IMG/VR virus record: IMGVR_UViG_3300035671_000001
Span: 1 to 64,000 of that record
Length of the DNA: 64,000 nt
Strand: one strand, 5' to 3'
Source: a virus
Below, piece after piece: positions 5,277 through 43,469 of this stretch. Every line of letters starts with the position of its first letter. Position 1 is the first letter of the stretch. Position numbers and translations under genes: made by a program. The notes beneath the pieces were generated by a model. It worked only from the letters and a program-made list of their open reading frames with translations. It was not told the DNA's origin and did no database searches.

Positions 5277-5352
5277 GCGAGCCTAGATCAGCGAGAGCAC
5301 CATATGCCGAGAGCGAGCCAGGAGACCTGAGAGCACCACGATCCGATAGCGC
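5277..5352 (+). ncRNA. TIGR mini-array, 2 units
   Basis: GCGAGCC-TAGATCAGC-GAGAGCACC-ATATGCCGA-GAGCGAGCC-AGGAGACCT-GAGAGCACC-ACGATCCGA. Confidence 0.85.
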
Positions 5353-5384: not shown

Positions 5385-6194
5385 ATGACAGACCCACGAA
5401 TGGGCGACAACGTCGACGCGCCCTACGCCGAAGGCATTGTTGATCGACTTGCGCAGGACTACGCCGAACTCATTACCAATAGCGCCGAAGCGATCCGAGA
5501 TGCTGAAGACCTGCCGCTGATCGTCGAGAGCACCATCGACGTAGCTACACTTTCCAGCATGGTCATCAAGCTGCGCGATCTTGCTGGCCGCATTGCCTCA
5601 CATCACAAGGCGGAAAAGGAGCCGTTTTTACGTGGCGGCACTGCCGTCGACAATTTCTTTCTGAAGCCGAAGGAGAAGCTCAACGGCAAGCGCAAAGAGC
5701 TGGAATCTCGCGTCGATGTTTTCCAGCAGCGCAAGCTGGCGGAGGAACGCGCTAAACGTGCGGCGGAGGCGGCGGCAGCTCGACAGCGACAGCTCGAAGC
5801 GGAGCGTGCCAGTCAGGCGGCAGAAGCGGCGGCACGGCGGGCGCGCTCGGCAGAGACTGCGGAGATTCGAAGGGCTGAGGCGGCACGTGCCAAGGTCGAG
5901 GAGGAGATGGCCACAGCCAAGGCGGACGAAACCAAGTTGGCCACCTTGGCAACAGGCGGCTCGCTGGTGCGCGAACGTTTTCAGGGCGACGATCGCTCTG
6001 GCATGGCCACGATGCGCAAGAAGAAAACGGCTATGGTGACTGACATTGCCGAACTCGATCTTGAGAAACTGCGCTTCTACTTCAAGCCCGAGCATCTTGA
6101 GCAAGCACTGCGTGCATGGGCGACTGCGACGGACTATAACGATCAGATGGCCGGCGCGATCGTCAGCAAGGGTGATACCACAATGATCCGTTGA
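5385..6194 (+). CDS. Coiled-coil phage protein of the recombination module
   Basis: GAGGT RBS; Ala/Glu/Arg-rich helix; EKEPFLRGG.AVD.FF motif. Confidence 0.6.
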   Translation: MTDPRMGDNVDAPYAEGIVDRLAQDYAELITNSAEAIRDAEDLPLIVESTIDVATLSSMVIKLRDLAGRIASHHKAEKEPFLRGGTAVDNFFLKPKEKLNGKRKELESRVDVFQQRKLAEERAKRAAEAAAARQRQLEAERASQAAEAAARRARSAETAEIRRAEAARAKVEEEMATAKADETKLATLATGGSLVRERFQGDDRSGMATMRKKKTAMVTDIAELDLEKLRFYFKPEHLEQALRAWATATDYNDQMAGAIVSKGDTTMIR

Positions 6195-6320: not shown

Positions 6321-6460
6321 GAGCCACCCGCAGGGAGTGCACCAAAAGGCGAGAGCGAACCACGACAGTTGAGAGTACCAGATCATCCGAGTGAGCCACG
6401 ACACTAGAGAGCACCAGATCATTCGAGCGAGCCATAACTGAAGAGAGCACCACGACGAAG
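6321..6460 (+). ncRNA. TIGR mini-array, 4 units
   Basis: 36-nt period with alternating GAGCGAGCC and GAGAG[CT]ACC repeats and 9-nt spacers. Confidence 0.9.
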
Positions 6461-6560
6461 AATGAGCGCACAGCTCAAGTTTACAAAATGGTCGGGCGCG
6501 CTCAAGGTCGTCAACCGCCGCACCTTTTTCACTGAGATGATTAGAAAGGAGAAAACGCCT

Positions 6561-7559
6561 ATGCCGCGTTCAGCAGTATGGCCAACCCTACGATACGGCG
6601 ATCTAGAGCGGGTCCACTCAATTGTCGAACAGGTAACGCCGGAGATGGCCAACGCCAAGATTCCCGGCGCGCTGTTCGAACGACAGCGACCGCTGCGTAA
6701 AAGCAACATTCTCAGATTGACTAACGAGATGAGGGAGGACCGCTTCTTGCCGGGAACGCAGATCGTGTTCTGCGTCACGCCGGATAACAAGGAAAGACTG
6801 GTCAACGGGCAGCATACGCTGACGTGCATTATCGAATCCGATCGGCCGCAATGGCTCACGATCACCTACATGCGGGCCGACAATATCGAGGATGTGGCAC
6901 AAATCTACAGCGTCCTCGATACGCAAGCGGTTCGCACCGTAGGCGATGCTTGTCGCGCGCATGGAGAGGAGATCACCTCAATTCCATATTTCCGGCAGCT
7001 CGCTTCTGCTGTGGGCATCATCGAGAACAACATGGAGCAGAAGGTAAGTATCAAGGGGCCAGCCTCGCGCGCTGGCCGCATCGCGCTGATGAAAGAATAC
7101 GAGGTGGCGGCACGAATGTTCGCCGGCACGATTGAGAGCGGCGGGCATGAACCGAAAAGCCGTATTCTGCGTGCAGCCATTATGGCCGTTGCGTTGGTGA
7201 CATTTCAGTATCAACCGTCGCTTGCGGCAGAGTTTTGGTCGGGTGTTGCCGATGATGAGGGGCTGGAGCGAAGGTCACCTGAGAAGACTTTGCTCACATA
7301 CCTGCGGGATGCGGATCGAAAGAAGTACCAGCAAGCGGGCGGTTGGCTACAGCGACAGATGCGCGTGAAGGCTGCGACATTGTGCTGGAATGCCAAGTTT
7401 CGAAACGAAGAACTTGAATTCATCAAACTCAACGCTTTCAAGCGCTATCGCTTGCTGGGCACGCGCTTTCATCACGGACTCTTCGACGACGAAACCGAGA
7501 TGCCTGATCCCATCATGTCGGACGAAGACAGCGTCGCCGCTTATTCCACGGGGAGCTGA
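6561..7559 (+). CDS. ParB-like/DGQHR-like N-terminal domain protein (in-frame upstream ATG at 6462)
   Basis: RQRPL...LVNGQHTL motif; AAAGGAG RBS at 6546-6551. Confidence 0.55.
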   Translation: MPRSAVWPTLRYGDLERVHSIVEQVTPEMANAKIPGALFERQRPLRKSNILRLTNEMREDRFLPGTQIVFCVTPDNKERLVNGQHTLTCIIESDRPQWLTITYMRADNIEDVAQIYSVLDTQAVRTVGDACRAHGEEITSIPYFRQLASAVGIIENNMEQKVSIKGPASRAGRIALMKEYEVAARMFAGTIESGGHEPKSRILRAAIMAVALVTFQYQPSLAAEFWSGVADDEGLERRSPEKTLLTYLRDADRKKYQQAGGWLQRQMRVKAATLCWNAKFRNEELEFIKLNAFKRYRLLGTRFHHGLFDDETEMPDPIMSDEDSVAAYSTGS

Positions 7560-7569
7560 GAGGTGTGTG

Positions 7570-8532
7570 ATGACGGCGCAGCTCAAATTCACCAAGTGGT
7601 CGGGCGGCTCGGTGGGCCGCCCCGGCCTATACGAAGACATGAGACTTGATCACTACCATGGCCGCGATGTGTGCGACGGCGTCTCGATCAGCTCTAGCGG
7701 ACTTCGCACGATCTTTAATGAAAGCCCGGCGCATTATTGGTGCGGCAGCGTGTACAACAAGGAGCGTATCGAGGAAGAGCCGAGCCGAGAAATGGTGATT
7801 GGGCGGGCCATGCACCATCTGATGTTAGGTGAGCCGTATTTCGCTGAAATTTTCCGGCGCGCGCCCACCGAGGTGCCAGATGCCAAGGGCGTTCTCAAGC
7901 CGTGGAGCCTGCAGCTCAACTACGCCAAGGAGTGGCGAGACGCGCGCAAGCGGGAGGGCAAAGAGATTATCTTTCCGAAAGAGGTTGAGCTGATCGAGGG
8001 CATGGCGCGGGCGCTCGGTGCACACGAGATGGTGCAGGCGGGCGCTTTCGACGGCTATGTCGAGCGCTCCGGATTTTGGCGCGACAAGGAGACTGGGATA
8101 TGGCTCAAGATCAGGCCCGACGTGATCCCGTCCGATAGCGGTGACGTCTGCGATCTCAAGACCACAGCGAGTGTGCAATGGAAAGATTTGCAGCGCACCG
8201 TTGCCGAGCTGGGATACGTTCAACAATTTGCACTGATGCGAGAGGTGCTCCGAAATCTCGGATTTCCGTTTGCCAGTGCCACGTTGATCTTTGTGGAGCG
8301 CAAGCCGCCGCATTGCGTGCGTGTTGTCTCGCTGCGCTCTACCGATCTAGATCGTGGCCAGCAGATGAATCGGTATGCGCTGCGGACGTTTGTGCGCTGC
8401 TACAAGTCGAAGAAGTGGCCGGGGCCGGGCGGGACGCGCCGGGACGCCGAAGAAATTTGGCTGCCGGATTGGGCTCGTGAAAGCGTCGAGGCCAGATTGG
8501 CCTCTATGCAAGAGGATGAACAAGCCGCATAA
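7570..8532 (+). CDS. RecE/exonuclease VIII-like PD-(D/E)XK exonuclease
   Basis: YH....ISSSGLR, G.A.H..ML, K.RPD....DLKT, GY..QFA motifs. Confidence 0.85.
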   Translation: MTAQLKFTKWSGGSVGRPGLYEDMRLDHYHGRDVCDGVSISSSGLRTIFNESPAHYWCGSVYNKERIEEEPSREMVIGRAMHHLMLGEPYFAEIFRRAPTEVPDAKGVLKPWSLQLNYAKEWRDARKREGKEIIFPKEVELIEGMARALGAHEMVQAGAFDGYVERSGFWRDKETGIWLKIRPDVIPSDSGDVCDLKTTASVQWKDLQRTVAELGYVQQFALMREVLRNLGFPFASATLIFVERKPPHCVRVVSLRSTDLDRGQQMNRYALRTFVRCYKSKKWPGPGGTRRDAEEIWLPDWARESVEARLASMQEDEQAA

Positions 8533-8545
8533 TATGTTTGCGGAC

Positions 8546-8581
8546 AGCCATCTGGCATGAGTGCACCAAAATTTGGGAGCG
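8546..8581 (+). ncRNA. Solitary TIGR unit
   Basis: AGCC-ATCTGGCAT-GAGTGCACC-AAAATTTGG-GAGCG, followed by a hairpin at 8589-8618. Confidence 0.8.
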
Positions 8582-12148: not shown

Positions 12149-12480
12149 GCATGGAAGAAGAATTCGAAAAGATAGTGCCAACATATCGTGCACCTGAACA
12201 ACGAAGCAACGGGCGCACTGACTTCGTGCATCTAGCTGAGCAAGTTGCACAAGCGATGATCCAATCCTGCGAGGAGCAGGTTGCTAAGGCGCAAACTACA
12301 TTGGAGCGGACCCGTAAGGATGCCGAGGAGCTTCTGGCAGCGGTCAAGAGCAAGGATCGTGAGATAGTCGACATGACGAATCGGATCGCAGCGTTAGGCG
12401 AGCAGGTACTTGAAGCAAACCGTGCCTTTCATGCTACGATAGACGCAAGCCAGGAAGATCGAGAGCACCATAAGAGTTGA
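12145..12480 (+). CDS. Coiled-coil hypothetical protein whose 3' end lies in a TIGR unit
   Basis: AAGGAG RBS; stop codon at 12478-12480 falls inside the array. Confidence 0.6.
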   Translation: MSMEEEFEKIVPTYRAPEQRSNGRTDFVHLAEQVAQAMIQSCEEQVAKAQTTLERTRKDAEELLAAVKSKDREIVDMTNRIAALGEQVLEANRAFHATIDASQEDREHHKS

Positions 12481-12809
12481 GCGAGTCATTCCCTCCGAGA
12501 GCACCAAACAAGCCGAGCGAGCCACGAGCGCTGAGTGTGCCCATACACCGGAGCGAGCCAAAGTAGAGGAGAGCACCATTTCCGAGGAGCGAGCCAAGAG
12601 CGGCTAGAGCACCACGCGAGAGGAGCGAGCCAAAAAGCAGAGAGCACCAAATAAGCTGAGCGTTAAGCCAGTGAACGGGTGAGCACCAAGTCGCGCGAGC
12701 GAGCCACGGGCTGGGAGAGCACCACCGAAACTGAGCGAGCCACTTCTACGGAGAGCACCAGACACGTTGAGCGAACCATGACTTCAGAGAGCACCCGAGA
12801 AATTGAGCG
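12445..12809 (+). ncRNA. TIGR array, 10 units
   Basis: 36-nt dual-repeat periodicity. Confidence 0.9.
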
Positions 12810-13122
12810 AGCGTTGCTTCTGTCAATCGAAGAAGATGACTGGAGTAAACGCTCGCTCACTGACGCCAGCGGCAAGGTGATTGGATTCTTCTTGCACCCG
12901 GAGGATCGCGATCTCGCAGTGAGCGCGCTCGAAGCGCAGAGCAACGTGCTCACTATGATGGACACATTCGTCGAGGCGCTATCCTACATTGCCAATCCAG
13001 ATACTGATCCGGAAGCGGCACGCGCGGTCGCTGCCAAGTGCGCTGACAATGCGAAGCGCTATGCCGACTTGTTCTGCAAGATTACGCCCGTCGAATTTAT
13101 AACAACCATAGTGCCATCATAA
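12778..13122 (+). CDS. Hypothetical protein, probably starting within the last TIGR unit
   Basis: In-frame ATG at 12778; a guide matches its DTFVE codons synonymously, supporting this frame. Confidence 0.5.
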   Translation: MTSESTREIERALLLSIEEDDWSKRSLTDASGKVIGFFLHPEDRDLAVSALEAQSNVLTMMDTFVEALSYIANPDTDPEAARAVAAKCADNAKRYADLFCKITPVEFITTIVPS

Positions 13123-15982: not shown

Positions 15983-16059
15983 GTGCGAGCCAGCGAAAAC
16001 GAGAGCACCACAGCAGGAGAGCGAGCCATCGAGGCCGACAGTACCATAAACGACGAGCG
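15983..16059 (+). ncRNA. TIGR mini-array, 2 units
   Basis: GTGCGAGCC-AGCGAAAAC-GAGAGCACC-ACAGCAGGA-GAGCGAGCC-ATCGAGGCC-GACAGTACC-ATAAACGAC-GAGCG. Confidence 0.85.
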
Positions 16060-16812: not shown

Positions 16813-17178
16813 GGCTCGCTCCTGCGCCTTGGTACTCTCTACAGCGCTGGCTCGCTCATGCAATGTGGTGCTGTCACTTCTTTTGGCTCGCTCTCAAAAC
16901 GTGGTGCTGTCTCTTGATGTGGCTCGCTCGTCCGACTTGGTGCTCTCCACCAATATGGCTCGCTCCGCCGATATGGTGCTCTCAGACTCCACGGCTCGCT
17001 CTCGACCTATGGCGCTCTCAACGGGCGTGGCTCGCTCCGGCGATCTGGTGCTCTCGCGCTGGTTGGCTCGCTCCGGATTTCTGGTGCTCACAGATCACGT
17101 GGCTCGCTCGCTAAGCGTGGTACTCTCGTCTCGTATGGCTCGCTCTCCCGGCTTGGTGCTCTCAGAGACTTTGGCTCG
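16813..17178 (-). ncRNA. TIGR array, 10 units, minus strand
   Basis: Plus strand shows GGCTCGCTC-N9-GGTGCTCTC-N9 repeated ten times. Confidence 0.9.
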
Positions 17179-20617: not shown

Positions 20618-21709
20618 ATGGCAAAACGTCCTACTCATAAGAAGTGTCGGCAGTGCGGCGAATGGTTCATGCTCGGTAAGTACGAGCGCCTCACGCGGAA
20701 GTTCTGCACTTATAGCTGCGCGTCCACACATCGCAACGCGCAGCCGAAGTGGAAAAAGCGTCAGAGTAAACTGATGAAAAAGTTGGCGACGCCGGAAGTC
20801 ATGCGCGAACGCTCGCTCAAGATGTGGCGTGATCCTGCCATGCGTGCTCACCTGTCGGAGAAATCACGACAGCAGGCCAACACCAAAGAGCATCACGCCT
20901 GGATGATAGAGCACAATAAGAAACTGTGGACGGCTCCAGAGTACGCCGAATTTCGACAGCAGCACAGTGAGCGCACTCGCAAGACGGCCAAGAAACAATG
21001 GGATGATCCGGCGTTTCGCGAGAAGATTAGTGCCTTGACGACCGAGGCGAATAAGAAGCGCTGGGCCGATCCGGAATACAAAAAGCGAGTCGGCTTCAAG
21101 ATCCGTATCGCATTCGCTCAGCCGTTGTCAAAAGCAAAGCGTTCAAAGAGTTCACGCAAACAGATGATGAGACCGGAGCAGCGAACGCGGATAAGTAAGC
21201 TATCGAAAGAGCTGTGGCAGAATCCGGAGTACCGCGCCCTCGTAACCGAAAGCAGCCGAGCTGCAGCAATCAGGAATTATCGCAATCCATTTTACCGAGT
21301 AAAGAAACTTGCGGCGTTACGAAAATGGGTGCAGTCGCCAGAAGGCCGCGCACAGATGTCCGAACTCAATAAGAAACGTTGGGAGGACCCGGAATATCGT
21401 GCGCGGCAAAAAGCTCTATGGACGCCAGAAAAGAGCGCCGCGCTAAGTGAACTGAATAGAAAACGATGGGCTGATCCCAAGTTCAAAAAGCGCGTGGCAA
21501 AGAAGATTAGTAAGGCGAGACTCGAGAACACCAAGACACTCAGTGAGCAGAGCGAGCGAAGCAAAAAGCAATGGGCCGATCCAGAATTTAAGGCGCGTGT
21601 GAGTAAAAAAATCAGTAAGGGAAAGCGAGCCAAAAAAAAAAACGAGAACACCATCCAAGTTGAGCGAGCCACCAGAACTGAGAGTACCCGAAAAGGCGAG
21701 CGAGCCTAG
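20618..21709 (+). CDS. Zn-finger plus W-x-D-P-E-[YF]-R repeat (NUMOD3-like) basic nucleic-acid-binding protein
   Basis: KCRQCG...KFCTYSCA; about 10 K[KR]xWxDPE[YF][RK]-like repeats; C-terminus reads into the TIGR array. Confidence 0.65.
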   Translation: MAKRPTHKKCRQCGEWFMLGKYERLTRKFCTYSCASTHRNAQPKWKKRQSKLMKKLATPEVMRERSLKMWRDPAMRAHLSEKSRQQANTKEHHAWMIEHNKKLWTAPEYAEFRQQHSERTRKTAKKQWDDPAFREKISALTTEANKKRWADPEYKKRVGFKIRIAFAQPLSKAKRSKSSRKQMMRPEQRTRISKLSKELWQNPEYRALVTESSRAAAIRNYRNPFYRVKKLAALRKWVQSPEGRAQMSELNKKRWEDPEYRARQKALWTPEKSAALSELNRKRWADPKFKKRVAKKISKARLENTKTLSEQSERSKKQWADPEFKARVSKKISKGKRAKKKNENTIQVERATRTESTRKGERA

Positions 21710-22066
21710 CAGACGGACAGCATCATAATAGACGAGCGAGCCAAGATTAGTGAGAGCACCACGTCCGACGAGCGAGCCACGAAAGTTGAGAGCACCAAAG
21801 TGGCAGAGCGTAGCCAGAGAAAGTGAGAGCACCATTTTGAGCGAGCGAGCCATGTCCTGTGAGAGTACCAGACAAGACGAGCGTTAAGCCACTTGAAGCG
21901 AGAGTACCAAAACGAGTGAGCGAGCCAAGCGCGAAGAGAGCACCATGCAAGTTGAGCGAGCCATGTCCCATGAGAGTACCAAAAATCAGGAGCGAGCCAA
22001 GCGAGCCGAGAGCACCAATAGTCAAGAGCGAGCCATAACTACAGTGAGTACCAGAACAGGAGAGCG
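21623..22066 (+). ncRNA. TIGR array upstream of tas, about 12 units
   Basis: 36-nt dual-repeat periodicity ending 3 nt before the tas ATG. Confidence 0.9.
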
Positions 22067-22069
22067 AAA

Positions 22070-22858
22070 ATGACAGACGTTGCAGCAGTCCAAGCCTTAA
22101 CGCGTGATCTACGAAACGCCGCCGCGACAATGACGCGAGACGAAGCGCGATTCCTCGTTGATGCGTATTACATCATTCAAGACGATCGGAAGCGATCGGC
22201 CAACCAAGTGCGTTCTATGAAGGAGGAGCCACACGCCGTCCTTCAGTGGTTCTTCGATCAGAACGTCACGCTTGAAGGACAAATCAAGCGCGCCCTCGAT
22301 TCGTATTCCGACGCCAGCAAGATCGGCCTTTGGATGAAAGGAGTTTACGGAATCGGCCCGGTGATCGCGGCCGGGCTGCTCGCGCATATTGAGATCGACG
22401 ACAGCACTCCAACCGTGGGTCACATCTGGCGCTTTGCCGGACTTGATCCGACGGTGAAGTGGGAGAAGGGCCAGAAGCGGCCGTGGAATACTCAGCTCAA
22501 GACGCTGTGCTGGCACATCGGGCAGAGCTTCATGAAATTCTCAGGCCGCGACGAATGCCGCTATGGTAAGTTCTACCTTGCCCGGAAAAAGTTTGAAGTC
22601 GAGCGCAACGACTCAGGCGAGAACGCTGAGCTGGCGAAGACGCTGTTGCCGAAGTTCAACAAGAGCACCGACGCATACAAACATCTGCTCGGTGGGAAGC
22701 TGCCGCCGGCACAGATCGATGGGCGTGCACGTCGGTGGGCGGTGAAGCTTTTTCTCTCCCACATGCATGCTCAGTGGTTTAGATTGGAATTGGGCAAGGA
22801 GCCCCCCAAGCCATACGCGATTACGCAGCTCGGACATGGACACATGATTGAGCCATAG
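22070..22858 (+). CDS. tasA: TasA-like Nop-domain RNA-guided DNA-binding protein (IS110/IS116 Tnp_20-related; no RuvC or HNH domain)
   Basis: Coiled coil followed by GIGPVIAAGLL ... IWRFAGLDP ... WN..LKTLCW.IGQSF ... Y..RK ... ARRWAVKLFL; lacks a DEDD RuvC domain and the IS110 catalytic SG loop; embedded in dual-spacer arrays. Confidence 0.85.
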   Translation: MTDVAAVQALTRDLRNAAATMTRDEARFLVDAYYIIQDDRKRSANQVRSMKEEPHAVLQWFFDQNVTLEGQIKRALDSYSDASKIGLWMKGVYGIGPVIAAGLLAHIEIDDSTPTVGHIWRFAGLDPTVKWEKGQKRPWNTQLKTLCWHIGQSFMKFSGRDECRYGKFYLARKKFEVERNDSGENAELAKTLLPKFNKSTDAYKHLLGGKLPPAQIDGRARRWAVKLFLSHMHAQWFRLELGKEPPKPYAITQLGHGHMIEP

Positions 22859-24779
22859 GGTTTGAGAGCACCATCGAAGTCGAGCGAGCCACACGGACAG
22901 AGAGCACCACGATCATGGAGCGAGCCACGGACCTAGAGAGCACCACATAGGCGGAGCGAGCCAGAACACTTGAGAGCATCACGCGTGAGGAGCGAGCCAG
23001 ACGAGACGAGAGCATCATCCTCGATGAGCGAGCCACTGCGGCTGACTGTACCTATAGGAACGAGCGAGCCATTCTACACGAGAGTACCAAGCGAGCCGAG
23101 CGTTTCAGCCATGTAGAACGACAGCATCAGAGCCGAAGAGCGAGCCATGGGAGATGAGAGCACCACGTTGACAAAGCAAGCCATGATCTTTGAGAGCACC
23201 AAGCGAGCCGAGCGTTAAGCCAAGGAGCAAGAGTGCACCACATTGTGCGAGCGAGCCAGAAAACGCGAGAGTACCAAGGCTAGAGAGCGAGCCAAACCGT
23301 AAGAGAGCACCACAAAAAGCGAGCGAGCCGAGGGAGCTGAGAGTACCATATATGAGGAGCGAGCCATAAAGCGCGAGAGCACCATCCTCGACGTGCGAGC
23401 CATGCTCACTGAGAGTACCAAAATGAGCGAGCGAGCCAGAGCCCAAGAGAGCACCATCTGCTCAGAGCGTAGCCAAATGAGCAGAGTCGTACCAACATAG
23501 GAGAGCGTAGCCAAGATCGACGAGCGTACCCTGTCGGAGGAGCGAGCCAAAGACGATGAGAGCACCATGGTGAATGAGCGTAGCCACAAGACAGGACAGC
23601 ATCATGCGATTTGAGCGAGCCACTTCCCAAGAGAGTACCAAGCGAGCCGTGCGAGCCATGGGTAGCGACAGCACCATATGAAGAGAGCGAGCCACCGTTG
23701 ATGAGAGCGCCATGCCAAGCGAGCGAGCCACAGAACTTGCGAGTACCATGTCGTAGGAGCGAGCCAGCGGTAACGAGAGTACCATGGCGACGGAGCGAGT
23801 CATCGCCGCAGAGAGCACCACACGAAGTAAGCGAGCCAATGCGCGTCGAGAGTACCAAATAAGATGAGCGAGCCATGCAGGACGAGAGCACCATCACGCC
23901 AGAGCGCAGCCACAGCCACAGAGAGCACCATCGCTTAAGAGCGAGCCTTACCAGACGAGAGTACCCTACGATCAGAGCGAGCCAAGTCACAGGAGAGCAC
24001 CAAGCAAGGAGAGCGAGCCAGGGCGAGAGAGAGCACCACTACGCGCGAGCGAGCCACGGCGATTGTGAGTACCACGAAAAATGAGCGAGCCTTGTAAGAG
24101 GAGTGCACCAAATCATATGAGCGAGCCTTCGGCCGGGTGAGTACCATTGAACATGAGCGAGCCGGAAAACGCGAGAGTACCAAAAAGCGTGAGCGAACCA
24201 ATGACGAAGAGAGTACCAAAAGGAATAAGTGAGCCAGGGTGTGAGAGAGTACCAAGCGGGCCGAGCGTAGCCATCGGCAGGGAGCGTGCCATATGATCAG
24301 AGCGCTAGCCACGTATGATGAGAGCACCAAGCGCAGTGAGCGAGCCAGTAGCCAAGGGAGCACCAAGTCGGCCGAGCGTTTCAGCCATGCTGATGGAGTT
24401 GCACCACATCAGACGAGCGAGCCTTCCCGCCGGAGAGTACCAAGCAAGCTGAGTGAGCCGTGAAGTCTGAGAGCACCATATCGGCGGAGCGAGCCACGCC
24501 GAACGACAGTACCAAACCCGCCGAGCGAGCCAACGCGATCGAGAGTACCAAGCTGACCGCGCGAGCCATCGACCGCGAGAGCACCATTGCGCATGAGCGA
24601 GCCACGTCGATCGAGAGGACCAAACCACAAGAGCGAGCCAACCAGCGCGAGAGCACCAGATCGCCGGAGCGAGCCATACCGTTTGAGAGCACCACAGAAG
24701 CTGAGCGAGCCTGCGCAGTAGAGAGCACCAACGCAAGAGAGTGAGCCACCCACGATGAGAGTACCACGCCCCGTGAGCG
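22850..24779 (+). ncRNA. Main TIGR array, about 53 units
   Basis: GAGCGAGCC-N9-GAGAG[CT]ACC-N9, period 36 nt, with occasional 1-4 nt insertions in the GAGCG/AGCC repeat. Confidence 0.95.
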
Positions 24780-24849
24780 TCCTCCGAGAATAGCGGGGAG
24801 AACGTAAGCAATCGGACTCGACTCTAACGGCCGAATCGTTTTCAAAGAG

Positions 24850-24886
24850 AAGGCCCGCTCGGGCGGCGAACCCCGGCGGGCCTTTA
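24850..24886 (+). terminator. Hairpin closing the main array transcript
   Basis: AAGGCCCGC...GCGGGCCTTT. Confidence 0.5.
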
Positions 24887-25573
24887 ACGCGAGCAACCTA
24901 TTATTCTAAGGCGGGTTGCTGCGCTCCTCGAACACCTGTGAGGCAGGTGCCGATGCACAATACCTACATTGCGATTCGGTTCCGCGCAAGATTTTGTGCA
25001 CAGGGTTATGCCCTGTCCACAAAGTGTTGTGTCTGATTTGCGACATTAACGGGCTGCTAGCGAAAGCTGGTGGCCCTTTTTGCGTTTGCTGGAGCCTCGA
25101 ACGTGCCGCACGTCGGTAGAGAGGCGGCCAGCGCCCGGACCATCTAGGGCGATCTGAGGGATGCTGAGGCCGGTCAACAGATGGGCGATGAGCCCTGAGC
25201 AATACGGTCGGAGGCGCCTGGACCCTAGAGTCGCCGGGAAGGAGGCCGGGAGGCGGTGGTCTGGTGTTCGAACGCCCACTGCCGCCTCCTCGGTCCACTG
25301 CCCTGTGAGGCGGTGCGGAGCCGGGTGTGAGCGCCCTCTCGGAGGGAGTGCTGGCCGCAGGGCGCCGATAGCAAAATCATGTGGCCATGGACCGTGGCGG
25401 AGTGACGACCGTCATAGGTGCCCGTAAGGGCGGGACAGTCGTCCCCAGCACCGGATGACTTCTCAGCTCATGGTAGCTGAGCCTCATCCGGGTGTTGGAG
25501 GACTCTAGAAGGATTCGTAGCCGAGCAGAAAGCTCTCTTAGAGAACACTCTCTCAAAGGAAATGGATGGATTG

Positions 25574-31832: not shown

Positions 31833-31925
31833 ACAGCGCAGAAGGCAGCCGCGTGCTGCCTTCGACAGTGTTCATTCGAACGCTACGCCTCTTGCAAATT
31901 GGCGTCCCTCACTGGAGTCACTACA

Positions 31926-32822
31926 ATGAATAAACCAATCAAAATCGCAACGCCGCTCTCTCGAAAGGCGGTGCTTGTCTCTGTGAATATCTCGCAGTGG
32001 ACGGCGCGAAAGTTGGATCGCAAGGTCACCGACGAAGTTAACCGCGCGCACAACGCGGCCAAGGACGCCGGGCGATACAACAAGCTCTTGATCGAGGCCG
32101 AGCACTTGGCCGAAGTCAACAAGCTGGTTTCGAGTGCCAGGAGCTTGCACTACAGCATGACGCGGCCGTGGGCGGACGAGGGTCCGCGCATTCTGCCAAA
32201 CGCGCTCTACTCGAAGTTCACTGACGCATTCCGTAACTTGAAGCGTGAGTTTCAGATTGCGGCTGATGCGTTCTGCGCCGGCTATCCGAGCTTCGTTGAA
32301 GAGCGGAAGAAATCTTTGAACGGCTTGTTCAAAGAAGCGGACTATCCGTCAGCGAACGACATCCGCAACAAGTTCAAGCTTGAATTGAACGTGTTGCCAT
32401 TGCCAGACGCAGAGGACTTCCGCACCGATCTTGATCCCGACACGCTCGCGGACATCAAACGCGAGATGAGCGAGACTTCCGGCAAGGTGCTTGACGATGC
32501 AATGAAACAAACATTCGTTGAGATCACCGAGCTGGTCGGCCACATGGCCAAGAAGTTGAACGAGCAAACGGCCAAGACCAAGCAGAAAGGCGAGCGCAAA
32601 TTCTATCTCGACTCGCTCGTCAACAACGTGCGCGACTTGGCTGACTTGTTGCCTGCCTTCAATCTGACTGACGATCCGAAGCTCACCGCTATCACCAACC
32701 GCATTGCTAAGGAGCTATGCGTGGAAGATGCGAAGGAGCTGCGGAAGAATGACGAAGCTGCCAAGACAGTCGCCAAAAGCGCTGACGAGATCGTGGCCGA
32801 GGTGGCCAAATTCCTCGGCTGA
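31926..32822 (+). CDS. DUF3150-like protein
   Basis: KAVLVSVNISQW.ARKLD ... T.PW...G.RILP ... LF...DYPS; typical partner of the AAA and vWA genes. Confidence 0.65.
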   Translation: MNKPIKIATPLSRKAVLVSVNISQWTARKLDRKVTDEVNRAHNAAKDAGRYNKLLIEAEHLAEVNKLVSSARSLHYSMTRPWADEGPRILPNALYSKFTDAFRNLKREFQIAADAFCAGYPSFVEERKKSLNGLFKEADYPSANDIRNKFKLELNVLPLPDAEDFRTDLDPDTLADIKREMSETSGKVLDDAMKQTFVEITELVGHMAKKLNEQTAKTKQKGERKFYLDSLVNNVRDLADLLPAFNLTDDPKLTAITNRIAKELCVEDAKELRKNDEAAKTVAKSADEIVAEVAKFLG

Positions 32823-32840: not shown

Positions 32841-32877
32841 GAGCCACTGCCTCGGAGAGTACCAAAGAACGAGAGCG
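32841..32877 (+). ncRNA. Solitary TIGR unit
   Basis: GAGCC-ACTGCCTCG-GAGAGTACC-AAAGAACGA-GAGCG. Confidence 0.85.
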
Positions 32878-32972: not shown

Positions 32973-34436
32973 ATGCATAACGACAAACATGCGATGGATC
33001 GTGTCCTAAAGGCGCGCTCCGCGCTGATATTGGCCCGCCGTTTTTACGGCGTACTGGTGTCGAATGTTGAGCCCGTTCTTTCGCATGACGTTCCGACGGC
33101 CGCGACGAACGGCAAGAAGCATTTCTGGAATCCCGATTTCATCGCTGAACTGACGCAGGCACGTCTTGAGTTTGTGCAAGCGCATGAGAGCGAACACGAT
33201 GCGCGCCACCATGGTACGCGTCGCGGCGATCGCGATCCGAAAAAGTGGAATGAGGCCACCGACTTTGGGATCAATATCGATCTCAAGGACGAGGGCTTTG
33301 ATGTTCCGCCATGGGCGTTGCTTGACGAGCGATTCCGAGGCATGAGCGCCGAGGATATCTACCGCATGCGCGAGCTTGACGAACAGAACAACAAGCCGCA
33401 GCCGCAGCCCGAGCCTGAGCCCGAACAGGGTGAGGATGAGGGCGACGACGCCGACACCGACGAGGACAAGGGCGACGAGCCTGAAGCTTCCGACGAGGAA
33501 GGTGACGAGGAAGGCGACGAGGGCCAAGGCGACGACGGTGAAGACGGCGACGAAGAAGGCAAGGGTGAAGGCCCGGCCGACGACGGCGATGAGGAAACCG
33601 ACGGCGGCCAAGGCGCTGGCGACAGCGAAGCGGAAGGCGACGGCACGGGCGAAGGCACGGGCAGCGCTGACGGCGACGCTGATGGTGAGCCCGGCGAGGG
33701 CCAGCCGCAATCGTCCGGTGATCCCGGCCGCTGCGGTGAGGTGCTCGACGCGGCTGAAGACGCTGGCGATCTCGCTGAGATCGATCAGAAGTGGGAACGC
33801 ACGGTACGGCAGGCGGCTTCGATGGCGAAAGCGATCGGGCAGCTTCCGGGTCATGTCTCCCGCGACATCGAACGGGCCAACAATCCTGGCCAGGACTGGC
33901 GCGAAGTTCTCCGCGCTTGGTTCGATCAAGGCTCGCTGCAAGTCGAGACTTGGAACCGGCCGAACCGACGCTTTGTCGGGGCTGGCTTGTTCCTTCCCGG
34001 CAAGCGGCGGGACGGTATCAACCGGGTTGCGTTTCTGATCGATACGAGCGGATCGATGGACACCATCGCGCTGGCTTGTATCAGGAACGAAGCGCAGGCC
34101 GCGCTTGATGACGGTGCGATTGATGAGGTGATCGCCGTGTACGGTGACACGCAAGTCACTCGCGTCGACACTTGGCGCACGGGCGACGAGATCGAGTTCG
34201 ATCCCCGTGGTGGTGGCGGCACGCGCTTGCGTCCGCTGTTCGATTATGTGGCCGAGCAGGCTGACGATTGCTCTCTGATCGTTTGCTTTACGGATATGGA
34301 ATTCGAAGATTTGAATTCCACCGAGCCTCCGGCTTGTCCGGTGCTGTTCGCAGCGACGGGCTATCCCGACAAGGTTCGCAGATATCTTGCCGATGCTCCT
34401 TGGGGAGCGGCTGGCATTGATGTCGGCGCCCACTGA
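32973..34436 (+). CDS. DUF2201-type metallopeptidase plus vWA-like domain protein
   Basis: TAATNG...NP.F, HESEH, acidic linker, DWR.VL, IDTSGSM, GGGGT, FTD. Confidence 0.85.
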   Translation: MHNDKHAMDRVLKARSALILARRFYGVLVSNVEPVLSHDVPTAATNGKKHFWNPDFIAELTQARLEFVQAHESEHDARHHGTRRGDRDPKKWNEATDFGINIDLKDEGFDVPPWALLDERFRGMSAEDIYRMRELDEQNNKPQPQPEPEPEQGEDEGDDADTDEDKGDEPEASDEEGDEEGDEGQGDDGEDGDEEGKGEGPADDGDEETDGGQGAGDSEAEGDGTGEGTGSADGDADGEPGEGQPQSSGDPGRCGEVLDAAEDAGDLAEIDQKWERTVRQAASMAKAIGQLPGHVSRDIERANNPGQDWREVLRAWFDQGSLQVETWNRPNRRFVGAGLFLPGKRRDGINRVAFLIDTSGSMDTIALACIRNEAQAALDDGAIDEVIAVYGDTQVTRVDTWRTGDEIEFDPRGGGGTRLRPLFDYVAEQADDCSLIVCFTDMEFEDLNSTEPPACPVLFAATGYPDKVRRYLADAPWGAAGIDVGAH

Positions 34437-36763: not shown

Positions 36764-37264
36764 ATGGATGCCAAATGGTACGTGGCTCAGCTCAAGAATG
36801 GGCGCGAACGGGTAGCGATACGCGGGCTTGGTGACCAGGGATTCGAGAGCTACTACCCGCAAATGCAGGTGACGCGAGCCCGCAATGGGCGCGTGATCGA
36901 TGACACTGAGCCGGTATTCCCCTGCTATTTATTCCTGCGATCACAGCCTGACGCCTACTCTTGGCGCTCCATCAACAACACCCGAGGCGTGATCCGGCTG
37001 CTGGGCAATGACCAGCCGTGCTCGCTCCCGGATCGCGACGTCGAGCACCTCAAACTGCGCGAGAAAACGGGACAACTGCGGCATCCGCACCGCCGCCAGA
37101 TCAGGGCTGGTGACGTGGTGGAGTTCAAGCTCGGCACCTTCGTCGGGCTCCAGGGCATCTGCCAGTGGACGCGGAGAGAGCGCATTTCCGTGTTGCTTCA
37201 AATTCTTGGCGGCAGTAGCGTCACCATCGCGCCACGCGATTGGCTCAAGCTCGCTGTTGCCTGA
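36764..37264 (+). CDS. NusG/RfaH-like antiterminator
   Basis: WYVAQ.K...E......L..QG.E.YYP ... FPCYLF ... I.NTRGV..L, and a KOW motif G.F.GLQG. Confidence 0.9.
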   Translation: MDAKWYVAQLKNGRERVAIRGLGDQGFESYYPQMQVTRARNGRVIDDTEPVFPCYLFLRSQPDAYSWRSINNTRGVIRLLGNDQPCSLPDRDVEHLKLREKTGQLRHPHRRQIRAGDVVEFKLGTFVGLQGICQWTRRERISVLLQILGGSSVTIAPRDWLKLAVA

Positions 37265-41270: not shown

Positions 41271-43469
41271 ATGGCGATGCAGTTCAGCACATGGATGACG
41301 CGTTGGGACCCGAACGAGTACACCTTGTTCCGGCATCGCCTGCGCGGCGTGCAGTTCATCGGCCCCGACGTCATGCGGCGCTGGGACGTCACGCTGGCGA
41401 CGAACAGCATCGACCTCAACGATCCGATTATTCCTGCCTTCAAGGACGCGCTGATCAAGGAGGGCATCCTCCTGCCCGCGCGCGCGGAGTTGATCTTCGC
41501 GGCGGAGACAGGAGGCGAGCCTCCAGCCGAAGGGCAAGGGCCGCAAGGTCCGGCGGGACCGCCCGGCGCGACTGGGCCAGCGGGGCCAGCAGGGCCAGCA
41601 GGGCCAGCAGGGCCAGCGGGTCCACCGGGCAGCGGAGCTGGTGGTGGAATCGAAGAGGCGCCGATCGACGGCCAGCTCTACGGCCGCAAGGATGCGGCGT
41701 GGTCGCAGGTCACTGGAACGGGCGGACAGCCGGGGCCGGCAGGGCCTCCGGGACCGGCAGGCGCGGACGGCAAGGACGGCAAGGACGGTAAGGACGGCAA
41801 AGACGGTGCGCAGGGGCCGCAAGGTGATCAGGGTCCGCAGGGCACGCAGGGACCGGCAGGACCGGCCGGGGCCGAGGGCGTGCAGGGTCCGGCAGGTCAA
41901 GGTGGCGTGCAGGGCGTGCAGGGTGAGCCGGGACCGCAGGGATCGCCTGGGCTGAATGGTGCGCCGGGGTTGCCGGGATCACCGGGTGCGCAAGGCCCGA
42001 CGGGCGCGGACGGCGCGCCAGGAGTTGGACTGCCGGGCGCGGCAGGGCCGCAAGGTTTACAGGGACCGGCGGGCGTGGACGGTGCGCAGGGTCCGGCTGG
42101 TCCCGAGGGCGCGGTCGGCCCGCAGGGCGTCGCGGGCGGAGTTGGTCCGCAGGGAATCCAAGGACCCGGAGGCCCGCAAGGCGTGCAAGGCGAGCCGGGG
42201 TCGATCGGCCCCGCCGGCGCGCAGGGTGCGCAGGGCATGCAGGGGCCGTCCGGTGACACTGTCACGATCATCGGCAGCTTCAGTAACAAAGCGATCGCTG
42301 ATCTACCGCCGTCAGGCTACGTGCCTGCGGATTGGGATTCGCCCGGCGTGCCGCCTCTGGGCAACCAGATGGCGAACGGCCAGGGCTTGTTGCACACGCC
42401 GACGCAAACGGTTTGCTTGTGGGTTGGTCCAACGCTCACGCCCTCGGGTTGGGTCGAGCTGGGGAATGTGCAAGGTCCGATTGGGCCGACTGGTGCGGCG
42501 GGGCCAGCAGGCGCGCAAGGTCCACAAGGTGTGCAAGGTCCGCCGGGAGCTGATGCTGCGCCGGGTCCAACGGGAGCAACCGGCGCGGCTGGTCCACAAG
42601 GGCCGCAAGGTGATCCGGGTGCGCAGGGTATTCAGGGCATACCGGGATCACCGGGCGCTGCCGGAGCGCAGGGCGCGCAAGGCCCGCAAGGCATCGCTGG
42701 TCCGCAGGGCGCCAAGGGCGATCCTGGAACGCCGGGCCTGACTGGCGCGCAGGGTCCGAAGGGCGATACCGGTGCGCAGGGAACGCCGGGATCGACGGGC
42801 GCGCAGGGTCCGGCCGGAACGCAAGGCGTGCAAGGCGTGCAGGGCGTGCCGGGTCCGACTGCGGTGTCGGCGAATGCAGGCAACACCGCGACGCTCGGCA
42901 CCGACAATCTGATCTATGTGCCGACGCTGCCTCCGGCCTCTAACGCTACGCCGACGATGGACGGCACGGCGACGGTTGGTGTTGCGACGGCCTGGGCGCG
43001 CGGCGACCATGTGCATCCGAGCGACACCTCGCGCATGGCGAAGGTCGGTACGACAGCCGTTGGCAACGCGGCGGCCGGCGAGATCGGCGAGGTGCTCTCG
43101 ACCAGCGTCACCACCGGCGTCACGCTGGCCAGCGGCACGGCGGCGAACGTCGGGACGCTGAGCCTGACCCCGGGCGACTGGGACGTGAGCGCGCAGCTCG
43201 TGTTCAACCCCGGCACCAACCTCACCATCATGGCGGCGGCGATCTCGCTGACCTCGGCGACACTGCCAACAGCAGCGCAGCTCGCAGCGGGCACCGGGGC
43301 GATGCAGCAGTTGCGCGCATCGTTCGCGGCCTCGGCGGCCGAGATGCTGCAGAGCGGGTCGTGCCGCGTGAACGTCAGCACGACCACGACCGTCTACATG
43401 GTGGCGATGGTGACCGGCACGGGGACGTGGACGGGGACCGGCTTCATCAGTGCGCGCAGGCGGCGCTGA
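41271..43469 (+). CDS. Collagen-like (G-X-Y repeat) fibre protein
   Basis: Long GPAGPQG repeats; EAP.DG..YGRKD..W; ARGDHVHP. Confidence 0.85.

Follow-up and report, generated by a model that had tools for sequence, protein, structure and literature searches.

Here we describe a locus in a 64,000-nucleotide stretch of phage DNA (positions 1 to 64,000 of IMG/VR record IMGVR_UViG_3300035671_000001, referred to below as the window) that is very probably an intact TIGR-TasA system of the dual-repeat type, belonging to a tailed phage from soil, with the expression, action and purpose that we propose below. The locus comprises tasA (22070..22858, + strand), which encodes a nuclease-free coiled-coil and Nop-domain protein of 262 amino acids (aa), set between two arrays of short guide units. 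A first-pass annotation made from the letters of the sequence had already proposed that a phage-encoded TIGR-TasA system lies here; its observations were confirmed and its interpretation is supported. The window makes up the first 64 kb of a phage genome of 82,505 bp and 58.9% G+C, which comes as one contig from a soil metagenome, and the locus is an unusually large member of a large, already catalogued TIGR-TasA family (published 2025-2026) that is otherwise ordinary.

The arrays are evident in the letters themselves. Between 21600 and 24800, the + strand carries 42 exact copies of GAGCGAGCC and 43 exact copies of GAGAG[CT]ACC, and the - strand carries neither. These two repeats, which we refer to as the edge and the loop repeat, alternate at intervals of 18 nucleotides (nt) across 21623-24779, and Tandem Repeats Finder reports a period of 36 and multiples of 36 for the main arrays. 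The alternation and the 36-nt unit of the first-pass annotation are thus seen directly, and its 9-nt repeats and 9-nt spacers need correction to 10 nt and 8 nt: because an A is conserved after each repeat, the unit consists of a 10-nt edge repeat (GAGCGAGCCA), an 8-nt spacer, a 10-nt loop repeat (GAGAGYACCA) and a second 8-nt spacer, with the consensus GAGCGAGCCA n8 GAGAGCACCA n8. The same layout is present in about 55 related loci. Units were counted by anchoring on the loop repeat, and the earlier estimate of about 12 units before the gene and about 53 after it proved accurate: the upstream array (21623..22069, +) has 12 units (loops 21644-22044) and the downstream array (22846..24779, +) has 53, of which 50 are clean and 3 degenerate (loops 22864-24757). 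Altogether, 65 units with a period of 36 flank tasA on the same strand as the gene. A full-unit pattern of 20 fixed positions, with up to 3 mismatches allowed, finds 88 units in the 82.5-kb genome and 0 in five shuffles of it.

The ends of the arrays identify the two repeats. Both main arrays finish in GAGCG (22062-22066 and 24775-24779), the 5' half of GAGCGAGCCA, which marks GAGCGAGCCA as the edge repeat; GAGAGYACCA, which is richer in A, is then the loop repeat. GAG stands at the start of both repeats and CCA, the published box C, at their end, and the last base of box C co-varies between the two repeats in relatives (CCC/CCC in loci L046-48, TCG/CCG in L107); the box D equivalent at this locus is GA(G), not UG. 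About 12 edge repeats scattered over 21806-24390 carry insertions of 1-4 nt at the presumed cut site, in the forms GAGCG-T-AGCC, GAGCG-TTA-AGCC, GAGCG-TTTC-AGCC and GAGCG-C-AGCC. The upstream array ends with its truncated edge repeat 3 nt before the tasA ATG, and the AGGAG ribosome site of tasA lies within the last spacer and edge of that array, while the first edge repeat of the downstream array is degenerate and runs over the stop codon of tasA. About 70 nt past the downstream array there is a GC-rich terminator-like hairpin (24849..24885, +) followed by a weak U tract (UUU), and a second, canonical terminator-like site lies at 25051-25086. A search of the whole window against Rfam returned zero families. 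Across all arrays, the array-strand spacers are poor in T (A 30%, C 25%, G 27%, T 18%), and their G+C is 52% vs 59% for the genome.

The protein encoded between the arrays belongs with known Tas proteins. Its homologues align from residue 1, which favours the 262-aa start of the first-pass annotation over a database call of 242 aa. By sequence, TasA matches the solved TasR (9mty; E 1.5e-10, or 7.9e-20 with a family profile) and the solved TasH (E 5.8e-7, family profile E 7.5e-13), and the match to IS621 is weaker (profile E 3e-4) and confined to the C-terminal RNA-binding part, IS621 residues 166-240. The alignment to TasR opens at about residue 124 of its 331, so that the RuvC-bearing part of TasR has no counterpart in TasA; in agreement with this, a Pfam search of TasA found neither HNH nor RuvC. 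The only Pfam match is a sub-threshold one to Transposase_20 (PF02371, the IS110 C-terminal domain). An AlphaFold model built on 34 homologues (predicted local distance difference test score, pLDDT, 86.4; predicted template modelling score, pTM, 0.83) is all-helical apart from a short C-terminal hairpin, and in a Foldseek search of the PDB its top ten matches are TasH and TasR complexes (probability 1.00, template modelling (TM) score 0.52-0.69), followed by IS621 and ISCro4. Both the IS110/Nop character of the C terminus and the lack of RuvC and HNH had been read from the sequence at first pass and hold up here, and the structural and sequence comparison with Tas/Nop domains that was then suggested as a check returned a Tas-type coiled-coil plus Nop fold. 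The protein also matches phrog_4285 over its full length (E 2.5e-44). Its 5867 homologues are about 265 aa each, and TasA-family loci number 371 in IMG/VR and 34 in GTDB species-representative genomes of many phyla. Identity as an IS110-family transposase was considered and rejected, since neither a DEDD/RuvC domain nor a catalytic-Ser domain was found and PF01548 is absent.

The C-terminal loop of TasA bears on guide processing. In dual-repeat systems, pre-tigRNA is self-processed by a C-terminal Y/H loop, with Y289 and H296 as the catalytic pair in SpTasH (PMC13421893). In TasA, H256 does not vary among the homologues and H258 is kept in at least 90% of them, and Y249 stands seven residues before H256, the spacing of Y289/H296, with no residue-level alignment to SpTasH obtained for that region; loop 250-257 has low confidence (flexible) in the AlphaFold model. 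The loop may, but is not assured to, carry out self-processing of the guides.

We propose the following mechanism, drawing on published work and on the layout of the locus. Transcription would run along the + strand through tasA and the arrays on either side of it as one unit closed by the hairpin at 24849-24885, and the transcript would be cut in the middle of each edge repeat (GAGCG/AGCCA) to release 36-nt tigRNAs, each with an edge half, 8-nt spacer A, the loop repeat, 8-nt spacer B and a second edge half. Both 36-nt tigRNAs and their targeting geometry have been described (PMC12045711). By analogy with published TasA, TasR and TasH, a TasA dimer may grip the tigRNA through the CCA/GAG box motifs, and the complex would bind double-stranded DNA in which one strand reads spacerA+revcomp(spacerB). 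TasA has been reported to be an RNA-guided repressor that silences chromosomal genes when retargeted (bioRxiv 10.64898/2026.09.09.750476). Lacking a nuclease, the TasA of this phage would likewise act as a programmable roadblock or repressor that represses transcription without cleavage. About 90 distinct guides would be supplied by the main arrays together with satellite arrays and solitary units that follow other genes and would be processed in trans. The layout also points to negative feedback, since a cut at the last upstream edge repeat would cost the tasA message its ribosome site. The likely purpose of the system would be conflict with other mobile elements.

The guide repertoire extends well beyond the main locus. 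Genome-wide there are 95 units (92 clean and 3 degenerate), as the estimate of about 95 at first pass had anticipated. Outside the main locus, up to 17 kb from tasA, they form five satellite arrays and two solitary units. Four of the satellites lie on the + strand: 2 units at 5280..5351 in the divergent intergenic region before gene 5385-6194, 4 units at 6322..6465 downstream of the same gene, 10 units at 12448..12826 and 2 units at 15988..16059. The fifth, of 10 units (16817..17176, - strand), is inverted and set between + strand genes, and would need its own promoter. The solitary units are complete guide units on the + strand, one (8546..8581) directly after a RecE-like exonuclease gene (7390-8532) and the other (32842..32877), with 0 mismatches in the 20 fixed positions, directly after gene 31899-32822. 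Spacer pairs are unique in 90 of the 92 clean units. Duplication is limited to two guides, which the inverted satellite shares with the far end of the main array: guide 17055 is the same as main-array guide 24649, and guide 16983 differs from 24469 by one base. Among 115 loci compared, no contiguous array is longer than the one of 53 units, and 95 units is the largest repertoire; the second largest, at locus L035, has 72 units and likewise includes dispersed and inverted arrays. By comparison, dual-repeat arrays average about 16 tigRNAs (65,635 tigRNAs in 4,126 arrays; bioRxiv 10.64898/2026.09.09.750476).

To search for targets we used the spacerA+revcomp(spacerB) geometry, which we derived anew from the C-5 rule and from the 8-nt 3' overhangs described in the literature. 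In the 82.5-kb genome there are no exact or 1-mismatch self-targets above shuffled-pair controls, and no guide matches the arrays themselves with up to 1 mismatch. Likewise, when 859 unique unit windows from 82 loci were compared with 1.6 Mb of related loci, exact matches equalled shuffled controls. For all 92 guides, the 500 nt on either side were searched for near-targets, both in the published geometry and in three control geometries. In the published geometry five guides have near-matches where 0.28 are expected: 3 sites have no more than 2 mismatches (0.019 expected) and the other 2 have 3 mismatches (0.26 expected). The control geometries give 0-1 near-matches each.

Four of these five sites fall in adjacent genes. 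The second downstream guide (loop 22900) matches 14 of 16 positions at 22835..22850 (+), the 3' end of tasA (codons H256-E261), and both mismatches are synonymous third positions: the resident gene has CAT and ATT, and the guide has CAC and ATC, the codons common in relatives. Guide 32855 matches 13 of 16 positions at 32745..32760 in gene 31899-32822, with 3 synonymous mismatches and KNDEA encoded by both versions, and guide 12751 matches 13 of 16 at 12961..12976 in the next gene after its satellite array, again with 3 synonymous mismatches. Guide 8559 matches 14 of 16 at 8453..8468 in the RecE-like exonuclease gene, where one mismatch is synonymous and the other exchanges Leu and Met. Of the ten mismatches in these four cases, nine are therefore synonymous third positions. 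Each of the two solitary units thus nearly matches the 3' end of the gene that precedes it (106 and 110 nt upstream), for which the chance expectation is none. Genome-wide, near-matches with up to 3 mismatches, all of them synonymous, number 6 vs 0.87 expected from shuffled spacer pairs, and these include main-array guides at the antiterminator gene (36800-36815) and at positions 73632 and 80256.

Another set of guides points at the arrays. Three main-array guides (loops 23080, 23192 and 23631, within 23071..23666, +) have the edge-repeat core AGCGAGCC as their spacer B, and 7, 6 and 6 of the 8 positions of their spacer A are complementary to spacer A of the next unit; no other guides reach 6 of 8. 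In all three cases the intervening edge repeat is altered to a non-canonical form. These could be guides against array junctions, or could form hairpins in the precursor RNA. Altogether, about ten guides are variants of resident genes or array junctions, and none of these guides matches the resident copy perfectly. Separately, gene 32973-34436 (phrog_1314, annotated as an HNH endonuclease) is matched at 14 of 16 positions by each of two adjacent main-array guides (loops 24541 and 24577), in sites that span 33358-33844; all of these mismatches are non-synonymous, and it is unlikely that two neighbouring guides match one gene by chance.

Several results weigh against the mechanism that we propose for the locus. 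RNA sequencing runs containing the phage DNA were looked for and none were listed. A scan upstream of the array found no sigma-70-like promoter and no convincing site, and the hairpin after the downstream array is followed by a short U tract only. Y249 is replaced by F in several relatives, and it is this variation in the Tyr of the Y/H dyad that leaves guide self-processing not assured. Exact guide targets were found neither in the phage nor in related loci nor in the collections searched; with exact targets not found, the biological purpose of the guides is inferred. Finally, the 759 guides of 55 related loci show no excess of near-self-matches.

What the guides are aimed at can be read in more than one way. 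They may be directed at genes of this phage (tasA, the RecE-like exonuclease, the antiterminator and others) and at its array junctions, in each case in versions other than the resident ones, such that resident copies are immune through silent differences or edge-repeat insertions. A guide that sits beside the immune allele would be co-inherited with it, and TasA would block a related phage on co-infection. We regard this as possible, though short of probable, and put forward with similar caution the view that the guides are an RNA-guided kin-discrimination set, the recognisable members of which match versions of the phage's own genes that differ from the resident copies only silently or by repeat insertion. 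In support of targeting of kin or rival alleles, near-matches within 500 nt exceed expectation in the right geometry and not in the controls, mismatches in adjacent genes and genome-wide are synonymous to the extent given above, the tasA-site guide has the codons CAC and ATC of relatives, and the three AGCGAGCC guides point to the next unit, the edge repeat of which is altered. There is also precedent in VIPR, a different phage RNA-guided repressor, for which a role in conflict between phages and escape through synonymous swaps have been reported (bioRxiv 10.64898/2026.04.26.720920). Against it, no homologous gene with the exact predicted target was found. The exact tasA target has 6 matches in IMG/VR and the exact 32855 target has 22, none in homologous genes, in a collection from which close relatives may be missing; a looser tasA-target pattern gave 34 matches in JGI metagenomes, none in a tas gene; and flank-constrained target patterns gave 0 matches in JGI metagenomes and IMG/VR, where close relatives may be missing too. 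Among the variants listed for three soil metagenome runs, none falls at a near-target site; one of these runs contains the phage sequence in full and identical form and is probably its source, and in the other two there are only distant relatives. Furthermore, the pattern is absent in the 55 related loci, it accounts for only about 10 of the 92 guides, and some mismatches are not silent, namely the RecE L to M exchange and both mismatches of each guide on gene 32973-34436.

Another possibility, which we consider doubtful, is that most guides target the chromosome of the host or, by pairing imperfectly, promoters of the phage itself, and so reprogram transcription during infection. The ability of retargeted TasA to silence chromosomal genes (bioRxiv 10.64898/2026.09.09.750476) fits this explanation, as does the finding that about 80 of the 92 guides have no near-match in the phage. 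However, there are zero exact self-targets, and since double mismatches abolish TasH activity (bioRxiv 10.64898/2026.08.11.744272), a site that mismatches its guide at 2-3 positions would probably not be bound.

It is less likely still that the near-matches are a trace of spacer origin. Guide units would then be made from nearby phage DNA, with the source subsequently escaping self-binding or drifting silently, and the near-matches would record the growth of the arrays rather than their aim. The distance from guide to near-target is indeed short, 65-210 nt for the four in genes and about 20 nt for the three at array junctions, rival alleles were not found in the collections searched, and the absence of adaptation genes beside tasA in 114 loci leaves room for a local mechanism. 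Yet it would take an unknown mechanism to turn a single contiguous stretch of 16 bp into both spacer A and an inverted spacer B, and three or four near-matches are 12-55 kb from their guides. The mismatches also occur almost only at silent positions of genes, which indicates that it is not the guides that have drifted; guides that are undrifted, with perfect repeats, argue for selection on the guides themselves.

Finally, it is hardly credible that the locus is the decayed remnant of an IS110-type transposase next to a repetitive coding region or an ordinary tandem repeat, without guide function: Pfam shows only the sub-threshold Transposase_20 and long - strand ORFs (open reading frames) cross the array, but the protein has thousands of full-length homologues of the same size and a confident Tas fold, relatives' arrays keep the repeats and change the spacers, units of 37-40 nt break any reading frame, and 90 of 92 spacer pairs are unique.

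The surrounding genome is that of a tailed phage, as indicated by its hallmark genes, and the system is thus phage-encoded, as annotated at first pass. Its genes include those for a large terminase, portal, head protease, endolysin and collagen-like tail fibre, together with the RecE-like exonuclease, a helicase and an antiterminator. The tail fibre gene (41271-43469, 732 aa) has long runs of 9-nt (Gly-X-Y) repeats. Directly upstream of the locus, an ORF of 363 aa (20618..21709, +; phrog_22215, function unassigned) extends through ~2.4 units at the start of the upstream array and then ends at its stop codon; it contains lysine-rich repeated motifs of the form K..WADP.FK.RV.KKISK. No ParB match was found for this ORF, and it has zero homologues in 114 related tasA loci. 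A TasParB-TasA operon was considered and rejected, since no ParB-like gene was found among the neighbours, for which ten neighbouring proteins were covered. Across the 114 related loci, no gene neighbours are conserved with tasA and there are no adaptation genes, and in many relatives the arrays are downstream of tasA or flank it on both sides. Searches of a phage collection by megablast and tblastn gave zero matches, and no tRNA genes, which were looked for as a clue to the host, were found. In two 2024 soil metagenomes, tas relatives of 22238-22904 are present at depths of 232 and 132 vs flanks below 10, and both metagenomes also contain arrays with the repeats of the phage locus and different spacers. 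Together, these observations indicate that relatives of the phage system are common in soil.

TIGR-Tas systems were described in 2025, and the papers state that natural spacer targets and the manner of array growth are unknown, in part since most loci lie on short metagenomic contigs. The present locus comes instead with a complete 82.5-kb phage genome and one of the largest repertoires, including guides outside the tas neighbourhood that published surveys scanned. Its near-matches yield testable pairs of predicted target and resident variant, and bear on whether nuclease-free TasA can be a weapon between related phages. If the guides do serve kin discrimination, natural targets for a TIGR-Tas system would be in hand, nuclease-free TasA would exclude close phage relatives, and synonymous recoding would be a mechanism of immunity. 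In a weaker form, the near-matches would show that DNA close by is what gives rise to TIGR spacers.

Comparison with characterized systems places the phage locus among dual-repeat TIGR systems with a solo Tas protein. Like FpTIGR of Flavonifractor plautii (Faure et al. 2025, PMC12045711), it has a solo Nop-domain Tas and the box C CCA, and as in FpTIGR-type systems a truncated terminal edge repeat is followed by a terminator and there are no adaptation genes. FpTIGR has spacers of 9+9 nt, whereas the phage locus has spacers of 8+8 nt with 10-nt repeats and, unlike FpTIGR, arrays on both sides of tasA, five satellites and two solitary units. TasParB-associated TasA loci (Faure et al. 2025, fig. 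S14) share the 10-nt repeats and the arrays upstream and downstream of tasA, but have a ParB-like gene that the phage locus lacks.

SpTIGR-TasH of Salicola phage CGphi29 (PDB 9w03, 9w04, 21kl; PMC13421893) is also phage-encoded, with 16 variable nt per guide, and is the top structural match of the TasA model (TM up to 0.69); both proteins have a flexible C-terminal His loop. At about 21% sequence identity, the two differ in that TasH has an N-terminal HNH nuclease and cuts DNA, whereas the phage TasA has none, and in that the catalytic Tyr of SpTIGR-TasH is not strictly conserved in the phage TasA family. Closer in activity are MbTasA and PlTasA, which have been shown to be RNA-guided DNA binders and repressors (bioRxiv 10.64898/2026.09.09.750476, 10.64898/2026.08.11.744272). 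These are nuclease-free TasA dimers, and from this likeness binding and steric repression are expected of the phage TasA; PlTasA differs in using stem-loop guides and in lacking the C-terminal processing loop, whereas the phage locus is dual-repeat. The bridge-RNA recombinases of IS110/IS621 (PDB 8wt6) have a homologous RNA-binding C-terminal domain (Foldseek probability 1.0), but the phage TasA has no DEDD/RuvC, no catalytic Ser domain and no transposon ends, and is accompanied by arrays of short guides rather than one bridge RNA.

Phage VIPR systems (bioRxiv 10.64898/2026.04.26.720920) offer a possible likeness in function, namely conflict between related phages in which differences in sequence protect the resident copies. 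Some guides of VIPR systems are aimed at other such systems, much as one guide of the phage described here points at tasA. VIPR proteins and guide codes are unrelated to TasA, no cleavage is expected at the phage locus, and a conflict role there is only hypothetical. In T-even phages, free-standing homing endonucleases are found beside recoded targets. Their proteins are likewise unrelated and TasA would not cleave, and the possible parallel lies in the conflict between related phages that both arrangements may serve.

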